From IMG/VR virus record IMGVR_UViG_3300001798_000005: a stretch of 64,000 nucleotides of DNA; one strand, given 5' to 3'. Source of the DNA: a virus. Its lineage: Duplodnaviria > Heunggongvirae > Uroviricota > Caudoviricetes. Both the position numbers and the translations under genes were made by a program. Below the pieces are notes generated by a model. The model saw only the letters and a list, made by a program, of their open reading frames with translations. It had not been told where the DNA came from and made no database searches. Positions 1 to 64,000 of the stretch are shown here, in pieces; the stretch's first letter is position 1; every line of letters starts with the position of its first letter.

Positions 1-169
1 GTGATAGAGATCCCCGAGGGGGTGGATTTTGAGATACTGGATTACGACGGCTGGGAGTGGGTGGCGGAACGCCATCGGCGGTGGCCTGGATGACTTGGTT
101 TGAGGCTTTTCTCTGGACCCTTGCTGGGATCTGGATTGCAGAAAATTTAACAAAAAGAAAGGAAACAAA

Positions 170-451
170 ATGCAAACAATGAGTTTTGAAATTCCCCTCG
201 GGAGTGACGTTCAGGATGTCGTGACCGGCTTTAAGGGGCGGATTGATTCGGTTTGCCTGTGTCTAAATGGCTGCATCCGCTACAGTGTGACGCCGATGGT
301 CAAAGATGGCGGCATCGGGGAGGGCTATTGGTTTGACTCCCAGAGGATCGAACTCCTCGGACCAGGCATTAACGCCACCAAGCCCCAAGAGCAAACGGGG
401 ACCGGTGGGCCGATGACACGGAGCCTAATGGAAAAATCAGCCCGGGGGTGA
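170..451 (+). CDS. hypothetical protein (93 aa)
   Basis: ORF with AGGAAAC-N5-ATG RBS; no recognisable motif. Confidence 0.5.
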   Translation: MQTMSFEIPLGSDVQDVVTGFKGRIDSVCLCLNGCIRYSVTPMVKDGGIGEGYWFDSQRIELLGPGINATKPQEQTGTGGPMTRSLMEKSARG

Positions 452-461
452 GAATATGATA

Positions 462-527
462 ATACTCATAGAACTCCCTTATGGATTCTGGTATTATAAT
501 TGTATACCAGAAAGGGAAAGAGGAACG
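462..527 (+). promoter_or_regulatory. Conserved early promoter/operator copy 1: ATACTCAT box, TATAAT (495..500) centred in dyad CTGGTAT-N9-ATACCAG, RBS AAAGAGGAACG
   Basis: 44-nt stretch 484..527 is exactly repeated at 57978..58021; related copies at about 1510 and about 59592. Confidence 0.6.
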
Positions 528-531
528 CCCA

Positions 532-837
532 GTGAACGCCATCGAAACTGCCCAAGCCATCATCGCCAAAGCCCAAGCCACCCTGGCAGATCCCAGTGCT
601 GAACGCGCCAAAGGCGAGGCTTATGTGGACGCCTTGGCGGCTTCGGGAAATCAAGTCAACCAAGCCCTGGCGGCTGGGCTTGACCGGCACCACAGCGCCA
701 ATATCATCGCCCAAACGGATTTTGAATTTGATCGCCGGGACGCCTTCGGGCCTAAAGGAACCGTTCAAGATAGCCGAGAAAACCGCATTGAAGCGGCTGA
801 CCTCTTGGACGCCTTCGAAGAGGAAATGGGCTGGTAA
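532..837 (+). CDS. hypothetical protein (GTG start, about 101 aa)
   Basis: GTG at 532 sits at the same spacing after the conserved RBS as the ATG of the 58026 gene. The upstream ATG at 481 lies inside the promoter element. Confidence 0.5.
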   Translation: MNAIETAQAIIAKAQATLADPSAERAKGEAYVDALAASGNQVNQALAAGLDRHHSANIIAQTDFEFDRRDAFGPKGTVQDSRENRIEAADLLDAFEEEMGW

Positions 838-849
838 AAAAATAAATAT

Positions 850-885
850 ACCGATCGGTAGATTAATTTCTACCATAATAGAAGT
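850..885 (+). promoter_or_regulatory. Two adjacent palindromes (TACCGATCGGTA; GGTAGA-N6-TCTACC) in an AT-rich leader, candidate operator of the downstream RHH gene
   Basis: Perfect dyads read directly, about 60 bp upstream of the 938 ATG. Confidence 0.4.
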
Positions 886-937
886 ATAAACTATGCCATA
901 AGTATATACTATTGAGTTAATATGTAAAGGGGAAGTC

Positions 938-1312
938 ATGCCAAAAAACAACCCAGAGCCCAGGACGGCGCACATCTTCTCAATTCCGGATCGTGAATTT
1001 CAAGCCCTCAAGAGCTTGGCCGCCCAGGCGGGGGTTTCGATTGCTCAATACTGTGAGGACCTAATCATGCTCAATCCCGATATTGAGATTGAGAGAAAAG
1101 AAAAGTGCAAAAACAGAAATATCAACATGTCGGCCACCACCTGGGCGCGGCTCAAAGAGCGGGGAGACCAACTTGGAGTTTCGGCTTGCTCGGTCCTGAG
1201 GGGGTTAATCGGCCCAGCGGCCTTGGTGGATGTCAGATTCATGCAGAATGGTATTCATGTTGTGGCCTCCCCGATGGTCAAGAAGGTGGTCTATAACGCC
1301 CCAGGGGGGTAG
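938..1312 (+). CDS. tandem ribbon-helix-helix (CopG/Arc-like) DNA-binding protein
   Basis: Two RHH-like segments (FSIPDREFQALKSLAAQAGVSIAQYCEDLI and NMSATTWARLKERGDQLGVSACSVLRGLI). Confidence 0.45.
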   Translation: MPKNNPEPRTAHIFSIPDREFQALKSLAAQAGVSIAQYCEDLIMLNPDIEIERKEKCKNRNINMSATTWARLKERGDQLGVSACSVLRGLIGPAALVDVRFMQNGIHVVASPMVKKVVYNAPGG

Positions 1313-1509
1313 ATAAAGTCACCTGGAAGGCGAACCTAGACCCCTTAACTGGACCTCAGAAACCATTGCGCGGGCTCCCGCTCCCCCAAATGACACCAGG
1401 ATACAAGCCAGACATTTGGATGATGGGGGAAGCTTATCCTTCTTTGGAATAATTTTATTTACACAATACCCCTTAGCGAGCGCCAATAGGCGCTCTTTCC
1501 TTTTGTGAT

Positions 1510-1569
1510 AATCCTCATAGAAATATTGATCAAAACTATGGTATAATATCCTCATACCAGAAAGAAAAG
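1510..1569 (+). promoter_or_regulatory. Conserved early promoter/operator copy 3 (ATCCTCAT box 1511, TATAAT 1542, TGGTAT-N9-ATACCAG dyad)
   Basis: Shares box, -10 and dyad with copies 1, 2 and 4. Confidence 0.5.
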
Positions 1570-1599
1570 TTTATCAGTGCCCCTGAAAGGAGCCTACCG

Positions 1600-1803
1600 A
1601 TGCCTACCCCAACTCAACTCTGCCGCCTTAAAGGTCACTTAAAGGAACAATTCCTTCAGGCTCCAATCACGGTCATCACCGGAGAGGCAAGCGAGGCTTT
1701 CCCTCACCGGTGGGTGGCGGAACGTTATCCTGCTTCAATTTGCTTAACCTGGCAGGCCAAAGTAGATTATTGCCAAGAATGCTTTATTGAGCTTCCCGCC
1801 TAA
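1600..1803 (+). CDS. hypothetical protein (67 aa)
   Basis: ORF after GAAAGGAG RBS, downstream of promoter copy 3. Confidence 0.45.
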   Translation: MPTPTQLCRLKGHLKEQFLQAPITVITGEASEAFPHRWVAERYPASICLTWQAKVDYCQECFIELPA

Positions 1804-2077
1804 AGCGGCTCAGCCGCACCCCTGCGTGCCTCGCAACAAGCGGGGCACTTTAGGTTTTCACCCTTTCGGGCTGGCCACTCCTTGGCGGCTGAGTTGTAGT
1901 GTTCGTCCCAGTGGGTCGGGATCACACCTGAGGGGTTGGCTCTGGTCTTTTGACGATTGCCGCCCTGACCGTCCAGTTGGTCCTCGGCTGATGCCTCCAT
2001 CTTGCGGGTCTGTTGGGTCTTGATGTGTCGAGTATTCCAGTGGTGACAAACCCGAGGGTTGCGACGGGTACGGCTCA

Positions 2078-2404
2078 TCAATCCCACCAGTGGTTGCCGA
2101 GTCGGGCCACCATTTGCCAGATCCGATCCCAGTGGTATTTTTCCAGTTTTTCAGAATTTTCATACTGGGCACGCGCCAGTAACGCTTCACCGAAGCGCTT
2201 TTCAATCTTCCAGCCGTCAGGATCTTTAATACAATCCAGCTCCACCACTCCTGTACACAGCCACGGTGAATTCTGGTATCGATCAATATGGGTCCTCATT
2301 ATGGCGATCTGTTCCGCCCTTTTGGCCCCATCGAGCCTGTAGCCGTCCTGGACCGAGGCCTCTAGACGTTTCAGCTTAAAAGACATTATAGGCAAAATTG
2401 CCAA
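2078..2404 (-). CDS. hypothetical protein (108 aa)
   Basis: ORF only; lies in a GC-rich stretch with overlapping ORFs in all frames. Confidence 0.25.
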   Translation of the reverse strand: MAILPIMSFKLKRLEASVQDGYRLDGAKRAEQIAIMRTHIDRYQNSPWLCTGVVELDCIKDPDGWKIEKRFGEALLARAQYENSEKLEKYHWDRIWQMVARLGNHWWD

Positions 2405-2471
2405 AAAGTCAAAGTCATTATCTCACCAGATAATCGGTAGCCAATCCCAGGTTCGGCTTCTCTAATTCTCT

Positions 2472-2885
2472 TCATCTCCTGACCCACCCACGCGGTACAG
2501 GGCGGCCCTCTGATCTAAAGTAATAGGGTTGGACCCCCAATATTGAAATCATGTGCCTTAATGCCTCGCTGGGGGTATGGAAAAATCTCTTTACGTTCTG
2601 GAAGACCAGAATATTCCGATCCCGATAGTGTTTTCTTGCTTTTGGATCCCGATAGCCTCTTTTGACCTGGAGGCGTTTTGTGCGGATCTGATCGACGTCG
2701 AGGTATTCGATTTTGAAATCAAAGCCACTCCCGTCCTCAATAGAACCCATACGGGACCGCCGATAACGGATCAGATAGTCCCGATCCTGAGCCCGTCCCA
2801 GGAGGGCCTCCACGAAGTGCTCAGCCGCCAGGCCGAGCTGGCTAATGGGATCGTCGTAATTATGTTTAGTTTTGGTTTTCTTCAA
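2472..2885 (-). CDS. hypothetical protein (137 aa), possible nuclease-like fold
   Basis: ORF; weak D..E.K-like pattern (GFDFKIEY..QVK). Confidence 0.4.
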   Translation of the reverse strand: MKKTKTKHNYDDPISQLGLAAEHFVEALLGRAQDRDYLIRYRRSRMGSIEDGSGFDFKIEYLDVDQIRTKRLQVKRGYRDPKARKHYRDRNILVFQNVKRFFHTPSEALRHMISILGVQPYYFRSEGRPVPRGWVRR

Positions 2886-3039
2886 TGACCCATAACCTCG
2901 GGAAGCCGTCTATGAGGAGTTTCTGACCTTCAGAATCCCACCAGAGGGAGAAGGTAAAGAACTCTATTACTTCTGTAACTGTTTTTTGCATCATGTGGAT
3001 ATTTTATTATTTTTCTGAAATTTACGCAAGATGACCCAG

Positions 3040-3189
3040 CTACTGCCGGGCCATCTGCTCAATTTTTTCCTTATTGGCTTTGATCCATGCGTGTGCCTCG
3101 CGGGACATCCGGTGGCCGTAGATGACCTTCACCTCCTCTGGTGGCTTGGGTGGGCGGCCACGAGGGCGCTTGGGGGTTGAGTCAGGCAT
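3040..3189 (-). CDS. small AT-hook-like basic protein (49 aa)
   Basis: ATG overlaps the stop of the upstream gene (ATGCCTGA); RPRGRPPK motif. Confidence 0.3.
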   Translation of the reverse strand: MPDSTPKRPRGRPPKPPEEVKVIYGHRMSREAHAWIKANKEKIEQMARQ

Positions 3190-3544
3190 CGCGCTCAACC
3201 TCTATGCTAAGGCTCTCGCATAGGGCTAGTAGCTTTCTGGGCGGGGTATCCCCCTTCTTATTCCGCTCTGCTAGCGTGGCCAGTACCAGTTTTTTAAAAG
3301 CCTCTTTGCAGAGCACAGTTGATCTCCTGTATGTCAGTATGCCTGTGGACGGGCAATAGTCAATGTCTCTGACTAGAGGATCAGCTTCTAGATGAGAGGT
3401 CTGTGGGGGCTGGTATCCGAAGCCAACCAACCATTCAGCGTGGGTTATTTTGACAGAATCAAAATGGTATGACTCTCCGACACGCACAGCTTCATATATA
3501 CAGCCAGCTCTGTGTTGGCCCCTCTTGATGGCCTTTTTGCTCAT
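3182..3544 (-). CDS. hypothetical protein (120 aa)
   Basis: ORF only. Confidence 0.45.
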   Translation of the reverse strand: MSKKAIKRGQHRAGCIYEAVRVGESYHFDSVKITHAEWLVGFGYQPPQTSHLEADPLVRDIDYCPSTGILTYRRSTVLCKEAFKKLVLATLAERNKKGDTPPRKLLALCESLSIEVERDA

Positions 3545-3675
3545 TGGGTTACGTCCTTTCTGGCGGGATTGCCCGCAGCTCTTGGGTATGTAAGTATTAT
3601 CGTCGAGACGGGAAAGAAATGCAATAGTTTTTTGTCGTTACGTTTAATATTTCTTAAATTTTTGTTCTGTAAGAT

Positions 3676-3972
3676 CTATTTAGACAGGGGGAAGAAATAG
3701 GAAGCACGTGCTCTTGTCTGGACTTGTATTTTTTGCTCATCGATTAATTGATTAATCAAGCTATTTCGTTGGCTCTTATTTAGCCATTGAGTCTTTCTAG
3801 TTAGATCCATTTTGTAAATTCCACAATTATCTGAAATTATTTTATAAATTTTATCTTTCTCACTGTGCCGAGTTGGCTTAAACTCCCCCCTGGTGGTTAT
3901 TATTTCAATTATTTTATCCAGCTTCTCCTCCAGGGTGGTTATTTTGCTTAAAATGAAGTCAACAGTATCCAT
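3676..3972 (-). CDS. small wHTH-like protein sharing the C-terminal motif of the primase-polymerase (possible origin-binding regulator)
   Basis: C-terminus LTRKTQWLNKSQRNSLINQLIDEQKIQ versus primase C-terminus LTRKTQNLNKRRRTEILNDLVESHQIQ. Start assigned to the second ATG (AAAGGAG RBS). Confidence 0.5.
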   Translation of the reverse strand: MDTVDFILSKITTLEEKLDKIIEIITTRGEFKPTRHSEKDKIYKIISDNCGIYKMDLTRKTQWLNKSQRNSLINQLIDEQKIQVQTRARASYFFPLSK

Positions 3973-3999
3973 ATATGGCAATCTCCTTTGATAATTCAA

Positions 4000-6668: not shown

Positions 6669-7496
6669 ATGCTCGATCTTAAACAGCTCAAGCCAAAAGT
6701 AACGCACGATCCCCCCCGGTTGGTCTTCTATGGTCCCCCCGGCAAGGGAAAGACCTACACAGCCGCCCAGGCGGGCGAGCATATCTTTCTGAATATCAAT
6801 GATGGCCTCGGGGGCATCCCCCATACGGCTTTCCCGATCCGGGGCGCCGACAAGGGCGATGATATCTTCAAGACCTACGATGAGATCATCTGGGCCCTGG
6901 ACGCCATCCTGAATCAGGATCATGACTTTCGGGTCCTGATCATTGATGGTCTCTCTGACCTGGAGGAGCTCATCCACCGCCAGATCTGCGCCGCCTCGGG
7001 GGTGAGTACGATCGCCAAGGCCTGCGGGGGATACGGGAAGGGCTACGTTGAGGCCATGAACTCCTGGAATGAGGTCTTGTCCCTCTTGAGCCAGATTCGG
7101 CAAAAGCGGAACATGGTCATTGTCCTGTTGGCCCACTCGAATATCAAGTCCTACGCTGACCCGATGGCGGACTCCTATGACCGCCATGTCCTAAAGCTCC
7201 ATGACGCTGCAGCTTTTCGGATCCGAGAATGGGCGGATGCGGTTTTGTTTCTTGATCAGAAGGTCTATATTGACAAATCCCAAGAGGGCATGAAGAAAAT
7301 CGCCAAGGCGAATTCCTTGGGGCTAACGTTTTTCACCTCTGAGAATCCCCGCCATCAGGCTAAAAACCGATACGGGCTGCCCTCGGAGATCCCTATGTCG
7401 TGGCAGGGGCTCATGGCCGCCATGAGCGAAGCCGCGACAAAAGCGAACACCGTAACAGCAAGCGAGAGAGAGAACACACACAATGGCACGATTTGA
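6669..7496 (+). CDS. Sak4-like RecA-fold ATPase (AAA_24-type)
   Basis: Walker A VFYGPPGKGKT; size and adjacency to a DUF669-like gene. Confidence 0.6.
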   Translation: MLDLKQLKPKVTHDPPRLVFYGPPGKGKTYTAAQAGEHIFLNINDGLGGIPHTAFPIRGADKGDDIFKTYDEIIWALDAILNQDHDFRVLIIDGLSDLEELIHRQICAASGVSTIAKACGGYGKGYVEAMNSWNEVLSLLSQIRQKRNMVIVLLAHSNIKSYADPMADSYDRHVLKLHDAAAFRIREWADAVLFLDQKVYIDKSQEGMKKIAKANSLGLTFFTSENPRHQAKNRYGLPSEIPMSWQGLMAAMSEAATKANTVTASERENTHNGTI

Positions 7497-12525: not shown

Positions 12526-13063
12526 TCTCGAAACCCTCAGCGCCCAAACCGATGCCGCGATCGTCTCCATTGGGGCGGTGAAGTTTAGCCCCAATGGAGC
12601 AGACGATGAGGCCACCATGCGGGACCAGGATCGGTGTCTGGACATCAGGATCGATCTTGACTCAGCCATGGCGCATGGCCACGTCAGCGGATCCACGCTC
12701 CAGTGGTGGTTTAAACAGGACGCCATGGCGATTCACAAAACCTTTTCAGATCCCAATAACAAACCCATGAGTCTTCGAGACGCCATGGATGCCTTCTATG
12801 ACTTCAGCCAGGGCTGTGTCTACCTGTGGGGCAATGGGGCGAATTTTGACAATCCCATTATCCGCAATGCTTGGAGTAAGGTCTCCCAGGCGGATTTTCC
12901 GATTGCGTATAACAAGGATCTGTGTTACCGGACCGTGAAGGAGCTGGTGCCGGTAGGCAAGATGCCGATGATCCCTAAATGTGGCACGGCCCACAATGCA
13001 CTTGACGATGCCATCTATCAAGCCCGGCACCTTCAGGCCATGTATGGGGTGATGGAGTGGTGA
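12506..13063 (+). CDS. DnaQ-like DEDDh 3-prime-5-prime exonuclease
   Basis: MLDLETLS (Exo I), C-terminal H..DDA motif. Confidence 0.6.
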   Translation: MKHIMLDLETLSAQTDAAIVSIGAVKFSPNGADDEATMRDQDRCLDIRIDLDSAMAHGHVSGSTLQWWFKQDAMAIHKTFSDPNNKPMSLRDAMDAFYDFSQGCVYLWGNGANFDNPIIRNAWSKVSQADFPIAYNKDLCYRTVKELVPVGKMPMIPKCGTAHNALDDAIYQARHLQAMYGVMEW

Positions 13064-14844
13064 TCCTCCGCCCCTACCAACAGGCTGCCATCTCGGCCCT
13101 TTATAGCTATTTTGCCGCCCATGACGGCAATCCCTTGATCGTTATGCCGACAGCTTCCGGGAAGTCCCCCACGATGGGGATGTTCATCAAGGAGGTCATT
13201 CAGTCTTACGATAATCAAAAGATCCTCATGGTCACACATGTTCAAGAACTCATTGAGCAGAATGCGGCGGAGCTTCAAGGGATCTGGCCCCAGGTCCCCC
13301 TGGGGATCTATAGCGCTGGTCTGAATCGGCGGGATACCATATTCCCCATCACGATGGCGGGCATTCAGTCGGTTTACCGGCATGCTGAAAAATTTGGATT
13401 TGTCCACTTGATGCTCATCGATGAGGCTCACCTGCTCAGCAATGAAGATTCATCCATGTATCGAATTTTCATTACTGAATTAAAAAAATACAATCCAAAC
13501 CTGAAGGTCATTGGCTTCACCGCCACCCCGTATCGGACCAAGGGCGGCCCCCTGACGGCTGGCGAGAAGGCGTTATTTACAGATGTCGCGTATGAGGTGG
13601 AGATCTCTGATCTGATCCGACAGGGCTATATCTGCCCCCTGGTGAGTAAATCATCAGCCGTTCAGGCTGATTTATCCAATGTCCATAAAAGAGGCGGTGA
13701 ATTCATCGCCAAAGAAGTCGAAGAGGCCTTTAATGTCTTGGACCTCACGGAAAGAGCCCTGGATGTGGTGCTTGACCTCGGACGGGGCCGCCGGGCTGGC
13801 TTGGTGTTCTGCTCTGGTGTCGCCCACGCTCAGGACGTGGCCGAACGGATTCGCCAACGCGGGAAGACCTGTGAGACTGTCACGAGCGACACCCCGAAGG
13901 AAGAGCGAGCCAGAATACTTGAAGACTTCAAGGCGGGGAAATTAGACTTTGTAACCAATGTCGGCGTACTCACCACCGGGTTCAACGCTCCGAATTGCGA
14001 TCTTCTGGTCCTCCTGAGGGCCACCAACTCTCCAGGACTTTTCTGTCAAATGCTCGGAAGAGGCTTCCGCCCCAACGGCAACGGCATGGCGGAGTCAATC
14101 CAGAACGGCAAGACTGATTGTCTGGTGTTGGACTTTGGCGGGAACCTTATGCGCTTCGGGCCGGTCAATATGCTGGACCCGAAGGAACCCCGAGTCATCC
14201 CCGGGAAAGAATGCCCTGAGTGTGGTGAGGTTTGTGCCGGCTTGGCACTGTACTGTCGGGCCTGCATGTACCGCTGGGGGGAGATGCCGACTAAGACATG
14301 CCACAAGTGCGGTCAAGAGTGCCATGCTGCAGCCCGGATGTGCAAAAACGAGACAGAAGCCGGGATCTGCAATACTGAATTTCCAAAGTCAACCATGCAT
14401 GATGTCTATGCCGCCGATGGGACCATTGTGGCAATGCTCCCCAGTGAGGCCGGGGAAGACTATCCGGTGAGTCACCTGGAGGTGATCGAGCATCGAAAAT
14501 CCAATACCGCCACCCCGTCCCTGAAGGTGACCTATTATTCCGGGACCGACATGCAAAAATTCTCCGAATGGGTCTGTTTTGAGCATCAGGGATTCCCGCG
14601 CCGCAAGGCAGCCCAGTGGTGGGCCGCCAGGACTGAACTCGGTTCCCCGACTCCCCAGAGTGTTGCGGAAGCCCTGGGGAGAATGGAGGAATGCTTCCAT
14701 CCTCAAGTGATCCGGGTCAAGCGGGAAGGTAAATATTTCCGCATCGATCAGGCTCGGGACTTTATTGACCGCCCTTTTGATGTCCTGATCAAACGGCTCG
14801 ATCCCCCCGAGGGGCGTCCCTACGCGGACCAGGTTCCATTCTGA
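13057..14844 (+). CDS. SF2 DEAD/DEAH-type helicase with C-terminal Cys-rich zinc-ribbon region
   Basis: PTASGKS (motif I), LIDEAH (motif II), FTATP (motif III); multiple CxxC pairs at 14200..14350. Confidence 0.65.
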   Translation: MVILRPYQQAAISALYSYFAAHDGNPLIVMPTASGKSPTMGMFIKEVIQSYDNQKILMVTHVQELIEQNAAELQGIWPQVPLGIYSAGLNRRDTIFPITMAGIQSVYRHAEKFGFVHLMLIDEAHLLSNEDSSMYRIFITELKKYNPNLKVIGFTATPYRTKGGPLTAGEKALFTDVAYEVEISDLIRQGYICPLVSKSSAVQADLSNVHKRGGEFIAKEVEEAFNVLDLTERALDVVLDLGRGRRAGLVFCSGVAHAQDVAERIRQRGKTCETVTSDTPKEERARILEDFKAGKLDFVTNVGVLTTGFNAPNCDLLVLLRATNSPGLFCQMLGRGFRPNGNGMAESIQNGKTDCLVLDFGGNLMRFGPVNMLDPKEPRVIPGKECPECGEVCAGLALYCRACMYRWGEMPTKTCHKCGQECHAAARMCKNETEAGICNTEFPKSTMHDVYAADGTIVAMLPSEAGEDYPVSHLEVIEHRKSNTATPSLKVTYYSGTDMQKFSEWVCFEHQGFPRRKAAQWWAARTELGSPTPQSVAEALGRMEECFHPQVIRVKREGKYFRIDQARDFIDRPFDVLIKRLDPPEGRPYADQVPF

Positions 14845-15312
14845 AAAAGGGATGAGACTTACGTTGGAGGACGTCGCCGGGGAAAGCGCGGAAGGGGAGC
14901 GGAAGGTAAAACCCCGGTAATCGGCATTGTGGAACGTGGTGGGGAAGTCAAAGCCATTGTGTCCACCGATACTAAAGCCGCAACTATACTACCGTTTATC
15001 TGCGAAAACGTAGAGCCCGGTTCTCAGATGATGACGGACGAGTACGCATCCTATAGCAGGATCTCATTGAACGGTTTCACTCACCAGCGCGTGAACCACG
15101 GTGTTGGTGAGTACGTGGCGGGCATCGTCCACACAAACACAATCGAAGGATTCTGGAGCCAGTTAAAGCGCTCCATAAACGGGACTTATCACTCGGTTAG
15201 TCCGCGTTATCTTCAGTCGTATGTGAATGAGTTTGCGTATCGTTATAATCGTCGCCACGTCCAGGAGCATCCTTTTCACGCTTTGACTTCAACGGCTGCG
15301 CGGCTCGTGTAA
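14845..15312 (+). mobile_element. IS1595-family (ISXO2-like) transposase DDE-domain fragment, in frame after the helicase TGA; lacks start codon and N-terminal Zn-ribbon (pseudogene/remnant)
   Basis: KRDETYVGGRRRGKRGRGAEGKTPVIGIVERGG ... VSTDTKAA ... HTNTIEGFWSQLKRSINGTYHSVS..YLQSYVNEFAYRYNRR. Confidence 0.7.
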
Positions 15313-15345
15313 GGATACGATCAAACTCTTCTTCAGTGATCGACA

Positions 15346-16119
15346 TCACACCTCCAACTTATTTATTTGAGTTGCTTCTAAAATGCTAATGATTTTTTCG
15401 CCCAAAGGGGAATTGCGATAGACAGGAGTTGCATAAATCTTTACGGGTAAATTATTCCTAACTTCCTCCTCAAGAAAAGCATTGTCTTGAATCGCGCACT
15501 TATATGACTTAGAAGCACCGTCCAATTCTACAAAAAATCGGCAAGTCCTCTTTTCCCAATCAATACTCCGAAGCTCTCCGGTCAATTCTTGAGGTTCTCC
15601 GCGCTCTGTTTGAGGCTCTGGAGTCGATATAGGCTCAGCCTCAATAAGTTTAGGCTTAACCTCTTCACTTGAAATTGAATATATAGGTTCTGGGTTTTCA
15701 TCTTCAAAGGCTTCAGCGCTCTTTATAAAACCGGCAAGAAATGGGGCGGCAAGTCTATCAGTCACACGTTTAGGCAGACGACTTTTACGTGTCGTTGTGG
15801 TAGTTGTAGTTTCCGTCTGTTCAAATGTATCCATTCCGTTCAGCCGATCATTCACTTCTGTTGCCATTTTTGTCAGGTAACTTTGAGTTAATGGAAGTAC
15901 CGTTTGCAAACCTTGAACTAAAAAATCGAATTCCCACGAACCGTGGTAGACATCAATGAGTCGCAATTCAGGAATTGAACCATTTTTCTGCTCTTCCCTT
16001 ATAATTATCCCTAGTGTTTCTTGATGCGCCATAAAGAAGTCGCGCAACATATCTATAGAGATGCCATCATTTCCCTCGGGCTCAAGACGTATCTTTAGTT
16101 TGACAGATTCCACACTCAT
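15346..16119 (-). CDS. hypothetical two-domain protein (257 aa) in AT-rich passenger region
   Basis: ORF with poly-Thr linker; lower GC than flanks; TTGACA-type promoter candidate at about 16174. Confidence 0.45.
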   Translation of the reverse strand: MSVESVKLKIRLEPEGNDGISIDMLRDFFMAHQETLGIIIREEQKNGSIPELRLIDVYHGSWEFDFLVQGLQTVLPLTQSYLTKMATEVNDRLNGMDTFEQTETTTTTTTRKSRLPKRVTDRLAAPFLAGFIKSAEAFEDENPEPIYSISSEEVKPKLIEAEPISTPEPQTERGEPQELTGELRSIDWEKRTCRFFVELDGASKSYKCAIQDNAFLEEEVRNNLPVKIYATPVYRNSPLGEKIISILEATQINKLEV

Positions 16120-16516
16120 TTTCCATGACCTGACTCAGTTACTACGAGCGTCATGGTATCACAAACACATACCTGTCAAGAGGGGATAGTTACCAATGAT
16201 CTAGTTAATAAAATCTGCTCCTGAGCCACATCAGGACCTCCCAGAGGGCGATCAGGCAAAGGCCAAAGCCCGCCATCCGCATTCCCAACAGGGCACCCTC
16301 AGGCAATTTTGTAATCCTGAATTGAGCCATTCACCAAGGCCCAATGATCGCCCTGATAGGCCTGGACGGCGTCCATCTGGGCGGCTTGGATCTGATGATT
16401 GATTTCCCGCTTGAGTTCGGGATTAAGTTTGAATTTTCTTTCAATGTTTGCCATATAGTTTTGAAACACTTCTCGATCCTCCTGTTAATTACATAATATC
16501 AGATCGATGTAGGGTG

Positions 16517-17125
16517 TCAATACTTTTTGCCATGCTTATGGGGCCGCCGGGCATTGTATTCAAGCTTTCTGCCGATTGTCTTCCCGATTGTGCGCTGGTC
16601 TGAGTCAGCATGCCCGGTTGAGGCCAGGCAGTCCAAAAGGCGAATAAAGACATCAGCTCCCTCGACCTCCCAGCCCTTGCGGTCCGGTAGGTGGGAATCC
16701 ATCAAGTCCTTTCGATCCGCTTCCAGCATTTCAGAAAGCTCACTATGGATCAGGGCAATCATACGAGCACGTCGCATGGGTTCAATGATGGGGTGGAGGC
16801 TTTCAACAAGCGCGTCCAGATAGGGGACTATGTTGATCGTGGGATCTGTAGCCTCAACCGCAATGGCCCACTTGTTAATAATGGAATTAATTTCTCCCCA
16901 AGTGTCAAAGCCCTTTGCCTTATTGGCGGCCTGGATCTCAATAGCCCATTGGTCAATGCCTTCAAAGACCTCATAGGCCTCCAGGGGATCAGTCAGGGAG
17001 GCCTCTACACCGGGAGCATTTTTCGGGAAATGCATTACTACTGGCATATCGGCCAGCTTTGAAGCAAAGAAATCACTCATGGCCTTGTTGGCCTCTGGTG
17101 ATTTGTCACAAAAGAGATCCATCAC
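16517..17125 (-). CDS. MazG-like all-alpha NTP pyrophosphohydrolase-like protein
   Basis: ALIHSELSEMLEADRK and EVEGADVFIRLLDCLA resemble MazG/HisE EExxE-type motifs (from memory). Confidence 0.35.
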   Translation of the reverse strand: MMDLFCDKSPEANKAMSDFFASKLADMPVVMHFPKNAPGVEASLTDPLEAYEVFEGIDQWAIEIQAANKAKGFDTWGEINSIINKWAIAVEATDPTINIVPYLDALVESLHPIIEPMRRARMIALIHSELSEMLEADRKDLMDSHLPDRKGWEVEGADVFIRLLDCLASTGHADSDQRTIGKTIGRKLEYNARRPHKHGKKY

Positions 17126-17273
17126 TTTCCTCCATTTTTACGCTGTCATGTTTTTCCCGAATTAATTCCCTCAGCAGGGCCGAGTATCGAATCTGCAATT
17201 TTTGCTCAAGCCATTCAAGCATTTGGACGGTTTCCCGATCGAGGGAATAGGTTTTGCGAATATGCTTAATCAT
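17106..17273 (-). CDS. ribbon-helix-helix (CopG/antitoxin-like) protein, 55 aa, overlapping the start of the MazG-like gene
   Basis: MIKHIRKTYSLDRETVQMLEWLEQKLQIRYSALLRELIRE; ATGATTAA overlap with upstream gene stop. Confidence 0.4.
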   Translation of the reverse strand: MIKHIRKTYSLDRETVQMLEWLEQKLQIRYSALLRELIREKHDSVKMEESDGSLL

Positions 17274-17547
17274 CGTCTTCCCTTGGGCAAAATTGCTCTT
17301 GAACGTCTCTGGGGTTAATGTCTGTTGGCCAATTCATGATTTGGCCAGTGTCGATATTGATATCAAAGATCAGGTAATCGCCAAAATGCTCCCCTGGGAA
17401 GAAGCTCGGCACATATTCATCATCGATGGACCCAATCAGCTCCCCCTGGGCGTCAAAGAGACTCCCGGAAAAACGATCTGAAATCTTGATGTGCATTTTG
17501 AGGATCTTTGCGTCCACTTTTATTTTTTTGTATTGTTCAATTTCCAT
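17266..17547 (-). CDS. hypothetical protein (93 aa)
   Basis: ORF only. Confidence 0.4.
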   Translation of the reverse strand: MEIEQYKKIKVDAKILKMHIKISDRFSGSLFDAQGELIGSIDDEYVPSFFPGEHFGDYLIFDINIDTGQIMNWPTDINPRDVQEQFCPREDDD

Positions 17548-17747
17548 CAGCGTCCCAGCTCTTTCAATGTGTTTTCAACTTGGTTGATCATCCCGGCCTT
17601 GGCACAATACAGAGCGGCTTCTTGTCCGATCTGAAGGGTGGCCCGAGTGGTGAAGAGAGCATTAGAGACCAATAAGACCAGCAGGACTGATGAAATTATT
17701 TTCCATTTCTTGATTTGCTTCTCCAGGGCGGTGAAAGTGGCTTCCAT
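17547..17747 (-). CDS. small membrane protein
   Basis: TM segment IISSVLLVLLVSNALF; large overlap with ligase 3-prime end lowers confidence. Confidence 0.25.
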   Translation of the reverse strand: MEATFTALEKQIKKWKIISSVLLVLLVSNALFTTRATLQIGQEAALYCAKAGMINQVENTLKELGR

Positions 17748-18408
17748 TAGGTTTCTCCTTTTCTGCAAAGTCACTACATTTCAGTTTTGTGATAATCCGA
17801 TTGCCTGATCGGGTCTTGAGTTCAACAACTGGGCGGGCCACGACGCCTTCAGCCCGGAAGGCCCCTCCATGGGTCCAGGTGGAATTGAATCCAACTTTGA
17901 CAAATTCAACCATTTCCAGCAGATTCCCTCGACCAACGATCGGAACGACCGAAAGGCCAAAAGTAGATGCTACATTTTCCAGATCAGGTCTTTTGAGCCA
18001 CCAATTGCCAACTTTGACGTCAAAGAGTACAAAGTCTTGATCGGGGCGATACAGTGCCCCAACTTTTTGGATCTTAGCCCCATAGCCCTCTCCGTAGAGG
18101 ACTGCGCCATTTGGAAAATCCTCATTGAGCTTTGCACTCTGATGGAAAAAGAGTTCTTCCAACCTGTTGATCAGGCTTGCTGGAATTTGAGCGTTAGCGG
18201 TCCGTCCCCCGAAGGATATCCTACCCCCATTGGCGATAGGGTCGACGATGATCCGAATATTGGTCCCATCGACTTTCTCGGTCCAGACCCAATCCATCAG
18301 CGCCAAATATTCAAAATATTCATTACTGTACTGCCCTTCCAGAAGGGCTTTTGATTTATTTTCAATATCCCGCTTGAAGACCGTGTTGATTTTGTGGTAT
18401 TCAGACAT
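17662..18408 (-). CDS. ATP-dependent RNA ligase-like nucleotidyltransferase (Rnl2-like)
   Basis: Motif I KVDGTN (KxDG), EGYG, FDVK, EGVVARP-like motifs; 248 aa. Confidence 0.55.
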   Translation of the reverse strand: MSEYHKINTVFKRDIENKSKALLEGQYSNEYFEYLALMDWVWTEKVDGTNIRIIVDPIANGGRISFGGRTANAQIPASLINRLEELFFHQSAKLNEDFPNGAVLYGEGYGAKIQKVGALYRPDQDFVLFDVKVGNWWLKRPDLENVASTFGLSVVPIVGRGNLLEMVEFVKVGFNSTWTHGGAFRAEGVVARPVVELKTRSGNRIITKLKCSDFAEKEKPNGSHFHRPGEANQEMENNFISPAGLIGL

Positions 18409-19051
18409 GGATTAACTCCTTTCCTGAACAGTTCCAACCGGGATATTCCCGCCGGGCAAATAATTCATATTTCTTTTCAACACCAGGATACATGGCCTCA
18501 ATGAGGGGATGGATGTCGGGCTTGCGGGAATGTTCCATGATTTTCTCCCGAATGATCGAGGGGGTCATCCGCTTGCCCCCAAAGGCCGCAGGCGTGACGC
18601 CTTGCCCCCGCGTGGCGATTATGCATATTTCGGCATTGGAAGCAGTATAGTGGCCAGGGCCATATTTAAGCTTTCCAGACCCTTTCTGTTCCTTTGTCCA
18701 CACAAAGCCAATGGTCGAGTATTCAAATCCCCACCCCTGGAGGACCGTCAGGGCATCATTGGGGCGGGTCCAGGTCTGAGTGGGCTTCCAGGAGGGTCGG
18801 CGACGCTGGCCATCGTACATCATCGGAAATGTCATCCACATGAACAGGATTGACCTCGGTCCCGCCAGGGCGGGGACGTCATACGTGATCGCAGGGTTGA
18901 TGATGTCCTGGGCCTTGAGGCATTCATAATGCCCGTCTGCCCCAGAGCCGAACCGGGTCCGGCCTCCACCGGTTAGGCGGTTGGCGTATTTCCAATTCGG
19001 ATCGGCCAAGAGGAGGGTCGCCTCAGGGAGCGGTTTTGTGATTTTAATCAT
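18401..19051 (-). CDS. MT-A70-family N6-adenine DNA methyltransferase
   Basis: LLADPNW (DPPW-type motif IV). Confidence 0.65.
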   Translation of the reverse strand: MIKITKPLPEATLLLADPNWKYANRLTGGGRTRFGSGADGHYECLKAQDIINPAITYDVPALAGPRSILFMWMTFPMMYDGQRRRPSWKPTQTWTRPNDALTVLQGWGFEYSTIGFVWTKEQKGSGKLKYGPGHYTASNAEICIIATRGQGVTPAAFGGKRMTPSIIREKIMEHSRKPDIHPLIEAMYPGVEKKYELFARREYPGWNCSGKELIHV

Positions 19052-59821: not shown

Positions 59822-60108
59822 AGGTCGTAATTTCTGAATGTCATGGGGGCTTTGGGTTGTCTGAGGCCGCCCAGATGTGGATCGCGGAAAAGGGATTGAA
59901 CCCTGATGCCCTCTTGGCCCAGTGGACCGCTGGGGAGCTGCGGGGGCTCCAGGTCCTAGTTGATTGCGTGGAAGCCCTTGGGGAGCGGGTCAACACCTCT
60001 TTCTCAAAGCTCTCCGTGATAGAGATCCCCGAGGGGGTGGATTTTGAGATACTGGATTACGACGGCTGGGAGTGGGTGGCGGAACGCCATCGGCGGTGGC
60101 CTGGATGA
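59818..60108 (+). CDS. hypothetical protein
   Basis: ORF; its 3-prime end is window positions 1..93 in the left copy. Confidence 0.45.
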   Translation: MKVVISECHGGFGLSEAAQMWIAEKGLNPDALLAQWTAGELRGLQVLVDCVEALGERVNTSFSKLSVIEIPEGVDFEILDYDGWEWVAERHRRWPG

Positions 60109-60184
60109 CTTGGTTTGAGGCTTTTCTCTGGACCCTTGCTGGGATCTGGATTGCAGAAAATTTAACAAAAAGAAAGGAAACAAA

Positions 60185-60466
60185 ATGCAAACAATGAGTT
60201 TTGAAATTCCCCTCGGGAGTGACGTTCAGGATGTCGTGACCGGCTTTAAGGGGCGGATTGATTCGGTTTGCCTGTGTCTAAATGGCTGCATCCGCTACAG
60301 TGTGACGCCGATGGTCAAAGATGGCGGCATCGGGGAGGGCTATTGGTTTGACTCCCAGAGGATCGAACTCCTCGGACCAGGCATTAACGCCACCAAGCCC
60401 CAAGAGCAAACGGGGACCGGTGGGCCGATGACACGGAGCCTAATGGAAAAATCAGCCCGGGGGTGA
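60185..60466 (+). CDS. duplicate of 170..451
   Basis: identical. Confidence 0.5.
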   Translation: MQTMSFEIPLGSDVQDVVTGFKGRIDSVCLCLNGCIRYSVTPMVKDGGIGEGYWFDSQRIELLGPGINATKPQEQTGTGGPMTRSLMEKSARG

Positions 60467-60546
60467 GAATATGATAATACTCATAGAACTCCCTTATGGA
60501 TTCTGGTATTATAATTGTATACCAGAAAGGGAAAGAGGAACGCCCA

Positions 60547-60852
60547 GTGAACGCCATCGAAACTGCCCAAGCCATCATCGCCAAAGCCCAAGCCACCCTG
60601 GCAGATCCCAGTGCTGAACGCGCCAAAGGCGAGGCTTATGTGGACGCCTTGGCGGCTTCGGGAAATCAAGTCAACCAAGCCCTGGCGGCTGGGCTTGACC
60701 GGCACCACAGCGCCAATATCATCGCCCAAACGGATTTTGAATTTGATCGCCGGGACGCCTTCGGGCCTAAAGGAACCGTTCAAGATAGCCGAGAAAACCG
60801 CATTGAAGCGGCTGACCTCTTGGACGCCTTCGAAGAGGAAATGGGCTGGTAA
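60547..60852 (+). CDS. duplicate of 532..837
   Basis: identical. Confidence 0.5.
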   Translation: MNAIETAQAIIAKAQATLADPSAERAKGEAYVDALAASGNQVNQALAAGLDRHHSANIIAQTDFEFDRRDAFGPKGTVQDSRENRIEAADLLDAFEEEMGW

Positions 60853-60952
60853 AAAAATAAATATACCGATCGGTAGATTAATTTCTACCATAATAGAAGT
60901 ATAAACTATGCCATAAGTATATACTATTGAGTTAATATGTAAAGGGGAAGTC

Positions 60953-61327
60953 ATGCCAAAAAACAACCCAGAGCCCAGGACGGCGCACATCTTCTCAATT
61001 CCGGATCGTGAATTTCAAGCCCTCAAGAGCTTGGCCGCCCAGGCGGGGGTTTCGATTGCTCAATACTGTGAGGACCTAATCATGCTCAATCCCGATATTG
61101 AGATTGAGAGAAAAGAAAAGTGCAAAAACAGAAATATCAACATGTCGGCCACCACCTGGGCGCGGCTCAAAGAGCGGGGAGACCAACTTGGAGTTTCGGC
61201 TTGCTCGGTCCTGAGGGGGTTAATCGGCCCAGCGGCCTTGGTGGATGTCAGATTCATGCAGAATGGTATTCATGTTGTGGCCTCCCCGATGGTCAAGAAG
61301 GTGGTCTATAACGCCCCAGGGGGGTAG
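60953..61327 (+). CDS. duplicate of RHH gene 938..1312
   Basis: identical. Confidence 0.45.
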   Translation: MPKNNPEPRTAHIFSIPDREFQALKSLAAQAGVSIAQYCEDLIMLNPDIEIERKEKCKNRNINMSATTWARLKERGDQLGVSACSVLRGLIGPAALVDVRFMQNGIHVVASPMVKKVVYNAPGG

Positions 61328-61614
61328 ATAAAGTCACCTGGAAGGCGAACCTAGACCCCTTAACTGGACCTCAGAAACCATTGCGCGGGCTCCCGCTCCC
61401 CCAAATGACACCAGGATACAAGCCAGACATTTGGATGATGGGGGAAGCTTATCCTTCTTTGGAATAATTTTATTTACACAATACCCCTTAGCGAGCGCCA
61501 ATAGGCGCTCTTTCCTTTTGTGATAATCCTCATAGAAATATTGATCAAAACTATGGTATAATATCCTCATACCAGAAAGAAAAGTTTATCAGTGCCCCTG
61601 AAAGGAGCCTACCG

Positions 61615-61818
61615 ATGCCTACCCCAACTCAACTCTGCCGCCTTAAAGGTCACTTAAAGGAACAATTCCTTCAGGCTCCAATCACGGTCATCACCGGAGA
61701 GGCAAGCGAGGCTTTCCCTCACCGGTGGGTGGCGGAACGTTATCCTGCTTCAATTTGCTTAACCTGGCAGGCCAAAGTAGATTATTGCCAAGAATGCTTT
61801 ATTGAGCTTCCCGCCTAA
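61615..61818 (+). CDS. duplicate of 1600..1803
   Basis: identical. Confidence 0.45.
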   Translation: MPTPTQLCRLKGHLKEQFLQAPITVITGEASEAFPHRWVAERYPASICLTWQAKVDYCQECFIELPA

Positions 61819-62486: not shown

Positions 62487-62900
62487 TCATCTCCTGACCC
62501 ACCCACGCGGTACAGGGCGGCCCTCTGATCTAAAGTAATAGGGTTGGACCCCCAATATTGAAATCATGTGCCTTAATGCCTCGCTGGGGGTATGGAAAAA
62601 TCTCTTTACGTTCTGGAAGACCAGAATATTCCGATCCCGATAGTGTTTTCTTGCTTTTGGATCCCGATAGCCTCTTTTGACCTGGAGGCGTTTTGTGCGG
62701 ATCTGATCGACGTCGAGGTATTCGATTTTGAAATCAAAGCCACTCCCGTCCTCAATAGAACCCATACGGGACCGCCGATAACGGATCAGATAGTCCCGAT
62801 CCTGAGCCCGTCCCAGGAGGGCCTCCACGAAGTGCTCAGCCGCCAGGCCGAGCTGGCTAATGGGATCGTCGTAATTATGTTTAGTTTTGGTTTTCTTCAA
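62487..62900 (-). CDS. duplicate of 2472..2885
   Basis: identical. Confidence 0.4.
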   Translation of the reverse strand: MKKTKTKHNYDDPISQLGLAAEHFVEALLGRAQDRDYLIRYRRSRMGSIEDGSGFDFKIEYLDVDQIRTKRLQVKRGYRDPKARKHYRDRNILVFQNVKRFFHTPSEALRHMISILGVQPYYFRSEGRPVPRGWVRR

Positions 62901-63987: not shown

Positions 63988-64000
63988 ATATGGCAATCTC

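Follow-up and report, generated by a model that had tools for sequence, protein, structure and literature searches.

The stretch from about 14,850 to 16,202 of the window (the whole stretch of viral DNA under analysis, 64,000 nucleotides in length) is best read as a fossil "transporter IS" of the IS1595 family, an element that carried a passenger gene inside its terminal repeats and later decayed; we put the probability of this reading at about 85%. The right edge of the insert is the repeat tip of the family, sibling elements show the same repeats together with target duplications and passengers, and a sister phage (L047) that is collinear with the window on both sides is missing 14850-16203 only. 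The original prediction had taken the whole of 14845-17273 as one cassette delivered by an IS1595 element that subsequently decayed. The delivery and the decay are borne out, but the limits of the cargo have to be redrawn: the 257-aa gene, along with a 49-aa ORF, came with the IS, and the pair of ribbon-helix-helix (RHH) and MazG-like genes, which had been counted as cargo, is kept in the IS-less L047. The features of the region are collected in Table 1.

Table 1. Features of the insert and its flanks, in window coordinates.
Feature	Position	Strand	Remarks
SF2 (RadD/ResIII-type) helicase	13057..14844	+	Pfam ResIII, Helicase_C, DEAD; PHROG_16
Deletion junction	14845..14850	.	spacer AAAAG, also in L047, abuts transposase codon ~137
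5'-truncated IS1595-family transposase pseudogene	14851..15312	+	DDE domain, 153 codons plus stop
49-aa small ORF, MSITEEEFDRILTRAAQP...	15197..15346	-	runs antisense across the final ~38 codons of the transposase
257-aa passenger gene	15346..16119	-	slot between transposase stub and right repeat
Leader, right repeat to passenger start	16120..16169	-	conserved among 257-family elements
Right terminal inverted repeat	16170..16194	-	GGTAACTATCCCCTCTTGACAGGTA read inward; TTGACA within, at 16179-16174
Probable surviving 8-bp target duplication, AATGATCT	16195..16202	.	directly outside the repeat tip
41-aa hydrophobic ORF	16205-16330	-	aligns with L047 from 7273 onward; conserved there though uncalled
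56-aa ORF	16299-16469	-	backbone, outside the insert; aligns with L047
202-aa MazG-like protein	16517..17125	-	pyrophosphatase-like C-terminal half (PHROG); backbone
55-aa possible RHH protein	17106..17273	-	20-nt overlap with the start of the 202-aa gene; backbone

The transposase remnant

The proposed IS1595 DDE domain behind the helicase is confirmed by the profile search that had been suggested for it: positions 14845-15312 match Pfam PF12762 at E 5.9e-45 (153.5 bits against a cut-off of 27, profile positions 9-153 of 153) and NCBIfam NF033547 at E 1.2e-44 (152.8 bits, cut-off 75), and the fragment still has its conserved acidic residues, D3, D65 and E101. At the nucleotide level the stub is 82% identical to the copy in L010 and 80% identical to that in L015. 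An N-terminal Zn-ribbon or DNA-binding region is found in all groups of the IS1595 family except IS1016. The siblings in L010, L015, L052 and L053 do have the N-terminal Zn-ribbon (PF12760); in the window, as had been claimed, there is neither a start codon nor such a domain, and tblastn found no Zn-ribbon/HTH half of the transposase anywhere in the window because the copy is cut at about codon 137. The left inverted repeat is gone as well. The sole internal start of the stub, a GTG at 14929, has no obvious Shine-Dalgarno sequence and drops the first catalytic D. The stub is untranslatable on its own and the element immobile. Of the eight closest transposase copies examined, the window's own included, seven are broken, which indicates decay over domestication. 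The small ORF is intact in all seven close copies that retain that end of the element, and every called passenger gene is an intact ORF.

The right end of the element

The insert ends on the right in the family repeat tip GGGATAGTTACC (16183-16194). The repeat, with its tip at 16194, has the form GGTAACTATCCC..TTGACA, and GGGATAGTTAC has one exact occurrence in the window. Of the pair of terminal repeats starting with GG that marks the family, this right-hand one alone is left in the window; the sibling elements have the same termini at both ends. Homology to L047 resumes at 16204, just past AATGATCT, and this octamer is probably the remaining copy of the target duplication, whose partner was lost with the left end. 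Inverted repeats had been predicted near 14800 and 17300; they are absent there, and the single survivor sits at 16.19 kb. Generic inverted-repeat searches, covering the surroundings of the transposases in L010, L014 and L015 and 13.0-19.5 kb of the window, returned chance-level pairs only. The repeats were recognized instead through the DNA upstream of the 257-aa gene, which matches L014, L050 and L052 and resembles the left ends of the L010 and L015 elements.

Of the TTGACA-type promoter that had been placed at about 16174, the hexamer stands (16179-16174, minus strand) and the promoter fares less well: the hexamer lies inside the repeat, and the -35 and -10 elements are separated by a 15-nt spacer, which fails the criteria of a standard promoter scan. 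Within the leader there is a possible 12-codon mini-ORF (16154->16116) with a TGA that overlaps the passenger ATG, and the blastn matches to L050 and L052 run past the start of the 257-aa gene, about 75 nt into the upstream DNA.

Sibling elements and their passengers

Fourteen sibling elements have both inverted repeats. Of 11 siblings, nine complete ones have perfect 8-bp target duplications, namely TAAAATTT in L010, AAAGTTTT in L014 and CTTTTTAA in L053, and also those in L018, L022, L023, L065, L097 and L130; the other two match at 6-7 of 8 positions. The right repeat of the L015 element lies beyond the contig end. Close copies of the IS differ in their passengers, which nonetheless sit in one and the same slot: L010, L012, L014 and L053 have different genes there, all bounded by repeats with duplications. 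None of the different passengers matched another by tblastx or blastp. Examples of what the slot can hold include the OB-fold 257-aa family, an M78 peptidase, a SocA/Panacea-domain protein and membrane proteins. The element in L050 is a repeat-bounded derivative of 997 bp with a 7/8 duplication, in which the passenger and the 49-aa ORF are retained along with only 46 codons of the transposase; the order in L050/L051 is repeat, 244-aa passenger, 49-aa ORF, 46-codon transposase stub, repeat.

This subgroup, with termini GGTAAnTATCCC, is widespread and has members in phages, Acidobacteriota, cyanobacteria, Dehalococcoidales and Omnitrophota, among others. The scan of genome contigs used a 15-base degenerate repeat pattern that is too loose: among 80 loci inspected, 51 were without a transposase and are probably chance matches, and only the 29 with an adjoining transposase were used. 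Transposases on viral contigs are just 40-58% identical. Among the PLSDB plasmids, a tblastn search with a full-length sibling transposase found nothing above 47% identity, and therefore no named IS can be assigned.

The 257-aa passenger

The base composition does drop beyond the stub, as had been noted: the GC content is 41.5% over the 257-aa gene, compared with 51.4% for the genome. In the protein, a Thr-rich linker joins an N-terminal domain, in which AHQ and HGS motifs are invariant, to a C-terminal one (residues ~170-257) that is predicted to be an OB fold from a model built on a five-sequence alignment (pLDDT 68.6). An earlier AlphaFold2 model from three sequences was unusable (pLDDT 46), and the five-sequence model is usable for the OB domain only; with it, no solved structural analogue was found for the N-terminal domain. 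A search of BFVD with the passenger model gave two-domain phage proteins, a DUF6575 protein among them, with low TM-scores. Nothing in Pfam, NCBIfam or PADLOC matches the 257-aa protein, nor the 49-aa, 41-aa and 93-aa proteins, and the 56-aa ORF has chance-level, sub-threshold hits alone (Pfam LigB, PADLOC DpdC).

Homologues of the 257-aa protein occupy the same IS slot in L050, L052 and L053. The most divergent member of the family, in L054, has no IS on its short contig. The family is extremely rare, and since it is found on this IS in four of five cases, it is a candidate for a function linked to the IS or to the phage.

A small ORF antisense to the transposase

The 49-aa ORF, which went unnoticed in the earlier note, is preceded by GGAGG, and its ATG overlaps the stop codon of the 257-aa gene (TGATG). 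It appears, from sequence comparison, to be a constant accessory gene of this IS1595 subgroup. The alternative is that the ORF is not a gene at all and owes its conservation to constraint on the transposase C-terminus, to an antisense RNA or to a cis-acting site. We consider this the less probable explanation, though one that deserves to be taken seriously: for about three-quarters of its length the ORF lies on the complementary strand of a conserved coding region, its peptide, highly charged and of low complexity, has no family match in any library searched, and the copies compared are phylogenetically non-independent. In favor of a gene, the fraction of identical codons in the transposase is 0.69 in the overlap with the ORF, as compared with 0.47 elsewhere. 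Against a purely borrowed conservation, the first 12 codons of the ORF lie outside the transposase gene, and there the amino acids are conserved despite codon changes (Ser as TCG or AGC). An F..LL.RA motif is likewise kept even where it is coded outside the transposase gene, which in the Acidobacteriota elements is entirely the case. No stop codon interrupts the antisense frame in 21 of 33 copies, when 6.4 such copies would be expected, and a matched control region is at expectation (1 vs 1.2). The arrangement of a Shine-Dalgarno sequence and an ATG with a stop-start overlap recurs in three unrelated contexts, and the deletion that removed most of the transposase in L050 spares the 49-aa ORF, which is intact there. 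As for a cis-acting site, more than 0.8 kb separates the repeat from the 3' end of the transposase gene in elements that carry cargo, which makes it unlikely that the transposase binds there. The last ~116 nt of the stub would also code for the 49-aa protein, and this may have helped to preserve that part of it.

If the ORF is indeed a gene, the GGTAAnTATCCC subgroup of IS1595 would have an undescribed regulatory second gene (of about 50 aa, with F..LL.RA), a promoter in the right repeat, and a slot for the capture of passengers that outlive the transposase, a composite proposal for which we see the odds as evenly balanced. The small gene would be transcribed from the inward promoter of the right repeat, converging on and usually overlapping the transposase 3' end; diverse passengers would accumulate in the interval from promoter to small gene, which would be the capture slot; transposition would be regulated by the small protein or its antisense transcript; and the passengers would outlast the transposase. 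In the searchable literature we found no account of a small convergent ORF, or of an inward TTGACA in the right repeat, for IS1595.

How the insert may have arisen

The intact element would have consisted of a left repeat with an inward promoter, a transposase gene (Zn-ribbon, HTH, DDE), the ~49-aa gene converging on the transposase 3' end and overlapping it, the passenger or passengers, and a right repeat with its own inward TTGACA. Such an element would have inserted into the short spacer or terminator between the converging helicase and minus-strand accessory operons of this 60-kb phage. Its target would have been AATGATCT; with the left copy lost, we infer insertion at exactly that site. 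A later deletion of about 0.5 kb, in what we take to be the second of two events, would then have removed the left copy of the duplication, the left repeat, the transposase promoter, the first 136 or so transposase codons and the terminator hairpin of the spacer, stopping 5-6 nt beyond the helicase stop codon and leaving the transposase by accident in the helicase frame. What survives, a unit of leader, 257-aa gene and 49-aa ORF that would be driven from the right repeat, is potentially functional and may have become a fixed accessory set of the phage.

An alternative is that no complete element was ever present here and that an already truncated fragment (the 3' half of the transposase, the small ORF, the passenger and the right repeat) was picked up from a host or from a different phage by illegitimate recombination. 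It is true that the left junction, which lacks any IS feature, falls within the transposase gene, and that phage genomes are mosaic, with other indels between L047 and the window. On the right, however, the boundary is within 9 nt of the exact IS tip, which fits transposition and not random recombination, and the left side is explained by a single later deletion. We therefore regard the capture of a fragment as improbable and favor the insertion of a complete element followed by deletion.

The sister phage and the backbone genes

L047 was found through a protein collection; no close relative of the phage was found among the GenBank phages (INPHARED) and IMG/VR. Where the window has 14850-16203, L047 has a stretch of 42 nt (7231-7272), which together with the spacer before it contains a GC hairpin. 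Since L047 is the single "empty-site" relative and is 73-85% identical in nucleotide sequence, the form of the ancestral spacer is one that we infer. Several further indels separate L047 from the window.

The genes for the 41-aa, 56-aa, MazG-like, RHH and 93-aa proteins, the RNA ligase and MT-A70 are all retained in L047, the first four of them in unchanged order. This speaks directly to the idea that the whole block of 14.8-17.3 kb is one IS-delivered cassette with the RHH and MazG-like genes as a toxin-antitoxin or repressor-effector pair. The proposed comparison with a relative lacking this block came out in two parts: L047 does lack 14850-16203, but it has both genes of the pair, with the 202-aa protein 70% identical to a 203-aa protein of L047 and the 55-aa protein 72% identical to one of 53 aa. 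As an IS-less phage keeps them, the two genes belong to the backbone and not to the cargo. There is some appeal in the single cassette, in that the GC content is somewhat low as far as ~18.4 kb, the 55-aa and 202-aa genes overlap by 20 nt, and there are a weak RHH_3 match and PHROG pyrophosphatase matches. Start/stop overlaps are, however, usual in phage gene packing, and the repeat tip is at 16194, not at 17300. The match of the 55-aa protein to Pfam RHH_3 (E 0.01, 16.2 bits) is below the cut-off of 21.6, and the L047 orthologue has no RHH_3 match; RHH is a possible assignment. The MazG-like assignment of the 202-aa protein comes from PHROG "pyrophosphatase" families alone, namely 5658 (8.3e-21), 3301 (1.4e-16) and 9236 (1.9e-07); nothing was found in Pfam (E <= 10), NCBIfam, PADLOC or, by sequence, the PDB, even with a two-sequence profile. 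The toxin-antitoxin layout is likewise without profile support, as no toxin, antitoxin or defense profile of Pfam, NCBIfam or PADLOC is matched by the pair. The 257-aa, 55-aa and 202-aa ORFs themselves are present just as originally described, but their union into one cassette is very improbable.

The junction with the helicase

The helicase is the final gene of the plus-strand replication module; it flanks the insert and has no part in it. Its ORF ends with a TGA at 14842-14844, and the in-frame continuation that had been pointed out is real: the very next codon reads on in the same frame as KRDETYVGGRRRGKRGRGAEGKTPV...YRYNRR...ARLV* to a stop at 15310-15312. Homology to L047 runs up to 14849, and homology to the IS copies begins at 14851. 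The frame is open past the TGA because it is the frame of the transposase, and as the prior of an in-frame junction is one-third, the junction is most simply a 1-in-3 accident.

A functional role for the junction, whether by TGA read-through into a helicase-transposase fusion or by a domesticated DDE domain or independent nuclease, is hardly credible: the 155 codons past the helicase stop are free of stops and frameshifts and the DDE residues are whole, but the helicase of L047 (P0122, 81% aa identity), with no IS or DDE domain behind it, has the same C-terminus YADQVPF* with the same terminal residue and stop position (TAA there), the fragment is without its DNA-binding half, the window holds no second IS repeat to act on, no helicase-DDE fusion was seen among the top helicase homologues, and the only internal start would yield a DDE domain short of a catalytic residue.

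Significance

For the annotation of this phage the outcome is largely deflationary: what looked like a fusion is the scar of a deletion, and the RHH and MazG-like genes belong to the backbone. What is gained is a clean, datable case of a foreign gene that was delivered into a phage by an IS which was then disarmed; a relative with the site empty and a cassette form lacking the transposase are available for comparison. The environmental IS1595 subgroup now has its termini, target duplication and passenger slot defined, and can be annotated automatically. The conserved small convergent ORF is a candidate IS-encoded regulator, and is possibly the new part of the story; the OB-fold passenger of 257 aa may have a function tied to IS or phage biology.

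Comparison with known systems

Toward the phage MazG-like pyrophosphatases of PHROG 5658, 3301 and 9236, the likeness of the 202-aa protein lies in its C-terminal ~85 residues; it differs in that its sequence matches neither the MazG families of Pfam nor any solved MazG.

For the IS1595 family and for ISs in general, the accounts drawn on here from PMC8101967 and PMC3129680 establish the 8-bp duplications, the terminal GG and the Zn-finger plus DDE architecture, as well as passenger-carrying "transporter IS" and mobile insertion cassettes (the latter source citing Siguier et al. 2009), and the family is described with a single transposase gene (PMC8101967). The elements described above agree with the family and its transporter IS (ISfinder; Siguier, Gagnevin & Chandler 2009) in the DDE_Tnp_IS1595 domain, accompanied by PF12760 in the siblings, in repeats that start with GG, in 8-bp and often AT-rich duplications, and in passengers inside the repeats; in the window, too, the 257-aa gene sits in the slot between transposase stub and right repeat. 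The window copy differs from them in being 5'-truncated, immobile, left with one repeat and housed in a phage genome, and the subgroup as a whole adds the small convergent ORF and the inward, promoter-like TTGACA of the right repeat.

The transposase-less derivatives have a close parallel elsewhere. Mobile insertion cassettes, such as MIC231 of the IS231 group, are repeat-bounded passengers without a transposase. L050/L051, with its 7/8 target duplication, fits this description exactly, whereas the window copy is a fossil that has lost one repeat and therefore could not be mobilized in trans.

In IS10, pOUT directs RNA-OUT, a non-coding antisense RNA, over the 5' end of the transposase gene. 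The present subgroup is similar in that a promoter-like element in one terminus points antisense to the transposase. Unlike RNA-OUT, the transcript predicted here would run over the 3' end of the gene and would seemingly code for a conserved small protein.

An IS1595 transposase remnant behind the helicase

Judged by its sequence, the insert that follows the SF2 helicase gene is a decayed transporter IS of the IS1595 family, a known class. The helicase frame stays open past its TGA to 15312 (KRDETYVGG...YRYNRR...ARLV*) because the frame continuing it is that of a transposase; the prior for such an in-frame junction is 1/3. The 155 residues after the stop are an IS1595 DDE domain, matching PF12762 over profile positions 9-153 of 153 (E 5.9e-45) and NCBIfam NF033547 (E 1.2e-44), with D3, D65 and E101 in invariant or nearly invariant columns of an alignment with 21 homologues. 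The original prediction of an in-frame domain that retains its DDE residues was thus borne out, and it was equally right that the stub has no start codon and no N-terminal zinc ribbon: tblastn with five longer homologues as queries located the zinc-ribbon/HTH half nowhere in the window. The predicted fall in base composition beyond the stub is also seen, with a GC content of 41.5% across the 257-aa gene versus 51.4% for the genome. What the insert lacks is its left repeat, its promoter and some 136 transposase codons. The left break is at 14850, give or take one nucleotide: homology to the backbone reaches 14849, and homology to IS copies begins at 14851.

Coordinates and properties of the insert, its phage surroundings and related elements
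Feature	Location or size	Strand	Description
Replication genes	to 14844	+	Prim-Pol upstream, AAA_24, PDDEXK, PIF1 helicase, exonuclease, SF2 helicase
Helicase ORF	13057-14844	+	stop TGA 14842-14844
Transposase stub	14851-15312	+	5'-truncated
49-aa small ORF	15346-15197	-	ATG 15346, stop codon 15199-15197; starts 34 nt past transposase stop
257-aa passenger	15346-16119	-
Mini-ORF	16154-16116	-	12 codons, MTLVVTESGHGK*; conserved ATG about 40 nt inside right repeat
Right repeat	16183-16194		single exact copy in window
41-aa ORF	16205-16330	-	hydrophobic, MAQFRITKLPEGALLGMRMAGFGLCLIALWEVLMWLRSRFY; overlaps 5' end of 56-aa ORF in another frame
Sigma-70-like match	16520-16493	-	TTGACA, 16 nt, TATTAT, upstream TG; 11/12
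L010	1872 bp		8-bp repeats TAAAATTT; passengers 136 + 83 aa; transposase frameshifted
L014	1912 bp		8-bp repeats AAAGTTTT; passengers 193 + 97 aa; transposase without N-terminus
L053	1808 bp		8-bp repeats CTTTTTAA; complete, with 257-aa homologue; one in-frame stop in transposase
L052			257-aa homologue convergent with intact 296-aa transposase
L050/L051	997 bp		repeat-bounded, 7/8 target duplication; passenger, small ORF and last 46 transposase codons only
L015	1008-2922		passengers: 307-aa protein (weak DUF7946 match), 161-aa membrane protein, SocA_Panacea protein; transposase frameshifted
L012	8591-11371		nested IS1595 elements; outer passengers: M78 (ImmA/IrrE-type) peptidase, membrane protein
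L018	5042-5611		189-aa passenger between left repeat and transposase, translationally coupled to transposase
L054	200-931		257-aa family member, translationally coupled to upstream gene

The empty site and the extent of the insert

The extent of the insert can be read from a sister phage, represented by L047, a 20-kb Logan contig found in a protein collection through its helicase (P0122, 81% identical). The two genomes are collinear on the left (window 13059-14849, L047 5444-7230) and on the right (16204-19011, L047 7273-10076), and L047 has 42 nt (7231-7272) in place of window 14850-16203. The order of the 41-aa ORF, the 56-aa ORF, the 203-aa MazG-like protein (70% identity), the 53-aa RHH-like protein (72%), a 93-aa ORF, RNA ligase and MT-A70 is kept, so that the variable segment consists of the stub, the 257-aa gene and the upstream region of that gene. 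The original prediction of IS-delivered cargo followed by IS decay stands in kind. Its extent does not: only the 257-aa gene and the 49-aa gene are cargo, and the relative that should have lacked the whole 14.8-17.3 kb segment lacks 14850-16203 only. By their retention in L047, the RHH and MazG-like genes belong to the conserved phage backbone.

This pair had been likened to an antitoxin and its toxin, a reading that is unsupported: profile searches returned no toxin match, and it is ordinary for a phage to have a small DNA-binding protein ahead of a nucleotide pyrophosphatase. As to the MazG-like assignment of the 202-aa protein, its C-terminal ~85 residues match PHROG families annotated 'pyrophosphatase' (E 8e-21), with no match in Pfam, NCBIfam, PADLOC or the PDB; the 55-aa protein reaches RHH_3 only below threshold (E 0.01). 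The region's best sigma-70-like match falls within the MazG-like gene, at its 3' end, and precedes the 56-aa ORF. The 41-aa ORF, conserved in L047 as MARSWITKLPEGALLGMRIAGFGLGMMALWEFTRWLRNRFF and missed there by the gene caller, probably encodes a small membrane protein where the minus-strand operon ends.

The insert sits where two transcription blocks converge, the plus-strand replication genes ending at 14844 and the minus-strand genes occupying about 15.3-48 kb. Together with the preceding AAAAAG spacer, the 42 nt of L047 form a GC hairpin between A-runs that looks like a bidirectional terminator. This inter-operon hairpin is lost from the window (14845-15350), and in a consensus terminator scan of 14600-17700 nothing terminator-like shows up from the helicase stop as far as ~15.57 kb. 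Given the loss, helicase-operon and minus-strand transcripts may collide over the stub and the 49-aa ORF.

Window positions 1-3985 are identical to 60016-64000 (3985 bp), which indicates a circular or terminally redundant genome of ~60,015 bp, read past its own start. The same phage is present in Logan sample SRR6213120 (100% identity across 21.8 kb), and a further record of the 257-aa protein comes from a contig of 238.7 kb, a length close to 4 x 60 kb that may reflect a concatemer assembly. The replication module of L047 includes a ThyX (Thy1) gene and a 131-aa gene, and its Band_7 gene has an HNH gene and small ORFs nearby; the window has none of these. No close relative was found among GenBank phages or IMG/VR.

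Element ends and the decay of the transposase

The closest transposase copies (L010/L011, 82% at the nucleotide level; L015, 80%; also L053, L014, L052 and L012) are embedded in otherwise unrelated DNA. The DNA upstream of the 257-aa gene matches L014, L050 and L052 and, when inverted, resembles L010 and L015 at their left ends. In sibling elements the motif GGTAA[C/G]TATCCC, followed by a TTGACA-like hexamer, stands at both ends. Terminal repeats had been predicted near 14800 and 17300; neither place has one, and the family repeat that does exist points its tip, at 16194, toward the backbone. There the element ends, AATGATCT follows, and L047 homology is back at 16204. Perfect 8-bp direct repeats flank L010, L014, L053, L018, L022 and L023, and L065, L097 and L130 in bacterial genomes; a target duplication is absent at two further end pairs, L058 and L078, and weak at L061. 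In a degenerate repeat scan of GTDB genomes, which gives many chance matches, an IS1595 transposase adjoins the motif at 29 of 80 loci examined (Acidobacteriota, Dehalococcoidales, Calothrix, Verrucomicrobiia, Omnitrophota, Patescibacteria, Anaerolineaceae). Complete elements there measure 1.96-3.4 kb and must therefore have extra genes on board. Relatives also occur on 31 IMG/VR viral contigs.

The most economical history would be insertion followed by one deletion. The element would have transposed into the inter-operon spacer, and a later single deletion of ~0.5 kb would have taken the left repeat together with the duplication copy beside it, the transposase gene's 5' half and the terminator hairpin, sparing the helicase stop codon. 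Because the right boundary coincides exactly with the IS tip, transposition at this site is favoured over capture of a random fragment.

A function for the in-frame stub is argued against by the helicase C-terminus, YADQVPF*, which is identical in L047, and by the pattern of decay among the siblings. Counting the window, only one of the eight closest copies (L052) has an intact transposase; that of L012 is truncated and interrupted by the 306-aa transposase of another IS1595, and that of L050 is internally deleted. All seven copies that keep that end have an intact small ORF, L012 being the one that lost it, and the called passenger genes have uninterrupted reading frames. The DDE domain is thus best explained by decay, not domestication.

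Passenger genes

Homologues of the 257-aa protein are few: just two in 5.8 billion clustered proteins, with a profile search of 1.84 billion representatives adding two others; three of the four occupy the same slot in the same IS lineage (L052, L053, L050/L051). With its repeats, its passenger and only 46 transposase codons, L050/L051 is a mobile insertion cassette. The most divergent family member (P0245 on L054, 30% identity) lies on a 1.9-kb contig with no IS repeat, small ORF or transposase, and may represent a non-mobile source context. From its predicted C-terminal OB fold alone, we infer a possible nucleic-acid-binding role for the 257-aa passenger.

Unrelated passengers fill the same slot in close transposase copies. 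SocA_Panacea is an antitoxin-type domain, and the L015 set that includes it suggests that some passengers of the lineage are toxin-antitoxin or defence-like. L018, of a more distant lineage, carries its passenger upstream of the transposase, as do L022 and L023 of that lineage, judged by length; the subgroup therefore has two passenger positions. A mini-ORF ends in a TGA that shares bases with the 257-aa start codon (ATGA). Its own ATG is kept in L050, L052 and L014 and is ATC in L053; it could encode a leader peptide or simply be part of a -10 region.

A small convergent ORF

The 49-aa ORF, which the original prediction did not include, is preceded by GGAGG, and its ATG overlaps the 257-aa stop (TGATG). 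The transposase ORF does not cover its first 12 codons; there nucleotide identity falls but the encoded sequence remains conserved (M-x-[IT]-[TS]-E-[ED]-[ED]-F-x-[RK]-[IL]-[IL]-x-R-A), with codon turnover at Ser (TCG/AGC) and Arg (CGT/AGG). Within the overlap, identical amino acids of the transposase use identical codons at 0.69, versus 0.47 elsewhere (six close copies), with a step up at codon ~113 and equal amino-acid identity. Over the final 36 transposase codons, 21 of 33 copies have no stop in the antisense frame, where synonymous recoding predicts 6.4; for an upstream control window the observed count is 1 and the expected 1.2. In Acidobacteriota elements (~40% transposase identity) the overlap is merely ~13 codons and the F..LL.RA core is still there, and the L050 deletion ends 8-20 nt past the small-ORF stop. 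Taken together, these five observations make it likely that the ORF is under selection, a probability set at about 0.7 because the copies are phylogenetically non-independent. In elements without right-side passengers, the inward promoter-like element of the right repeat stands directly before the small ORF; the space between them is apparently where passengers were inserted.

Relation to known elements

The hallmarks of the IS1595 family are a terminal GG, 8-bp duplications and a transposase with a zinc finger and a DDE domain (PMC8101967). The 'transporter IS' with passengers was defined on this family, according to PMC3129680, citing Siguier et al. 2009. The searchable literature, ISfinder apart, yielded no description of such a small convergent gene. 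Within this known class, the passenger slot of the subgroup and the conserved small convergent ORF may be new.
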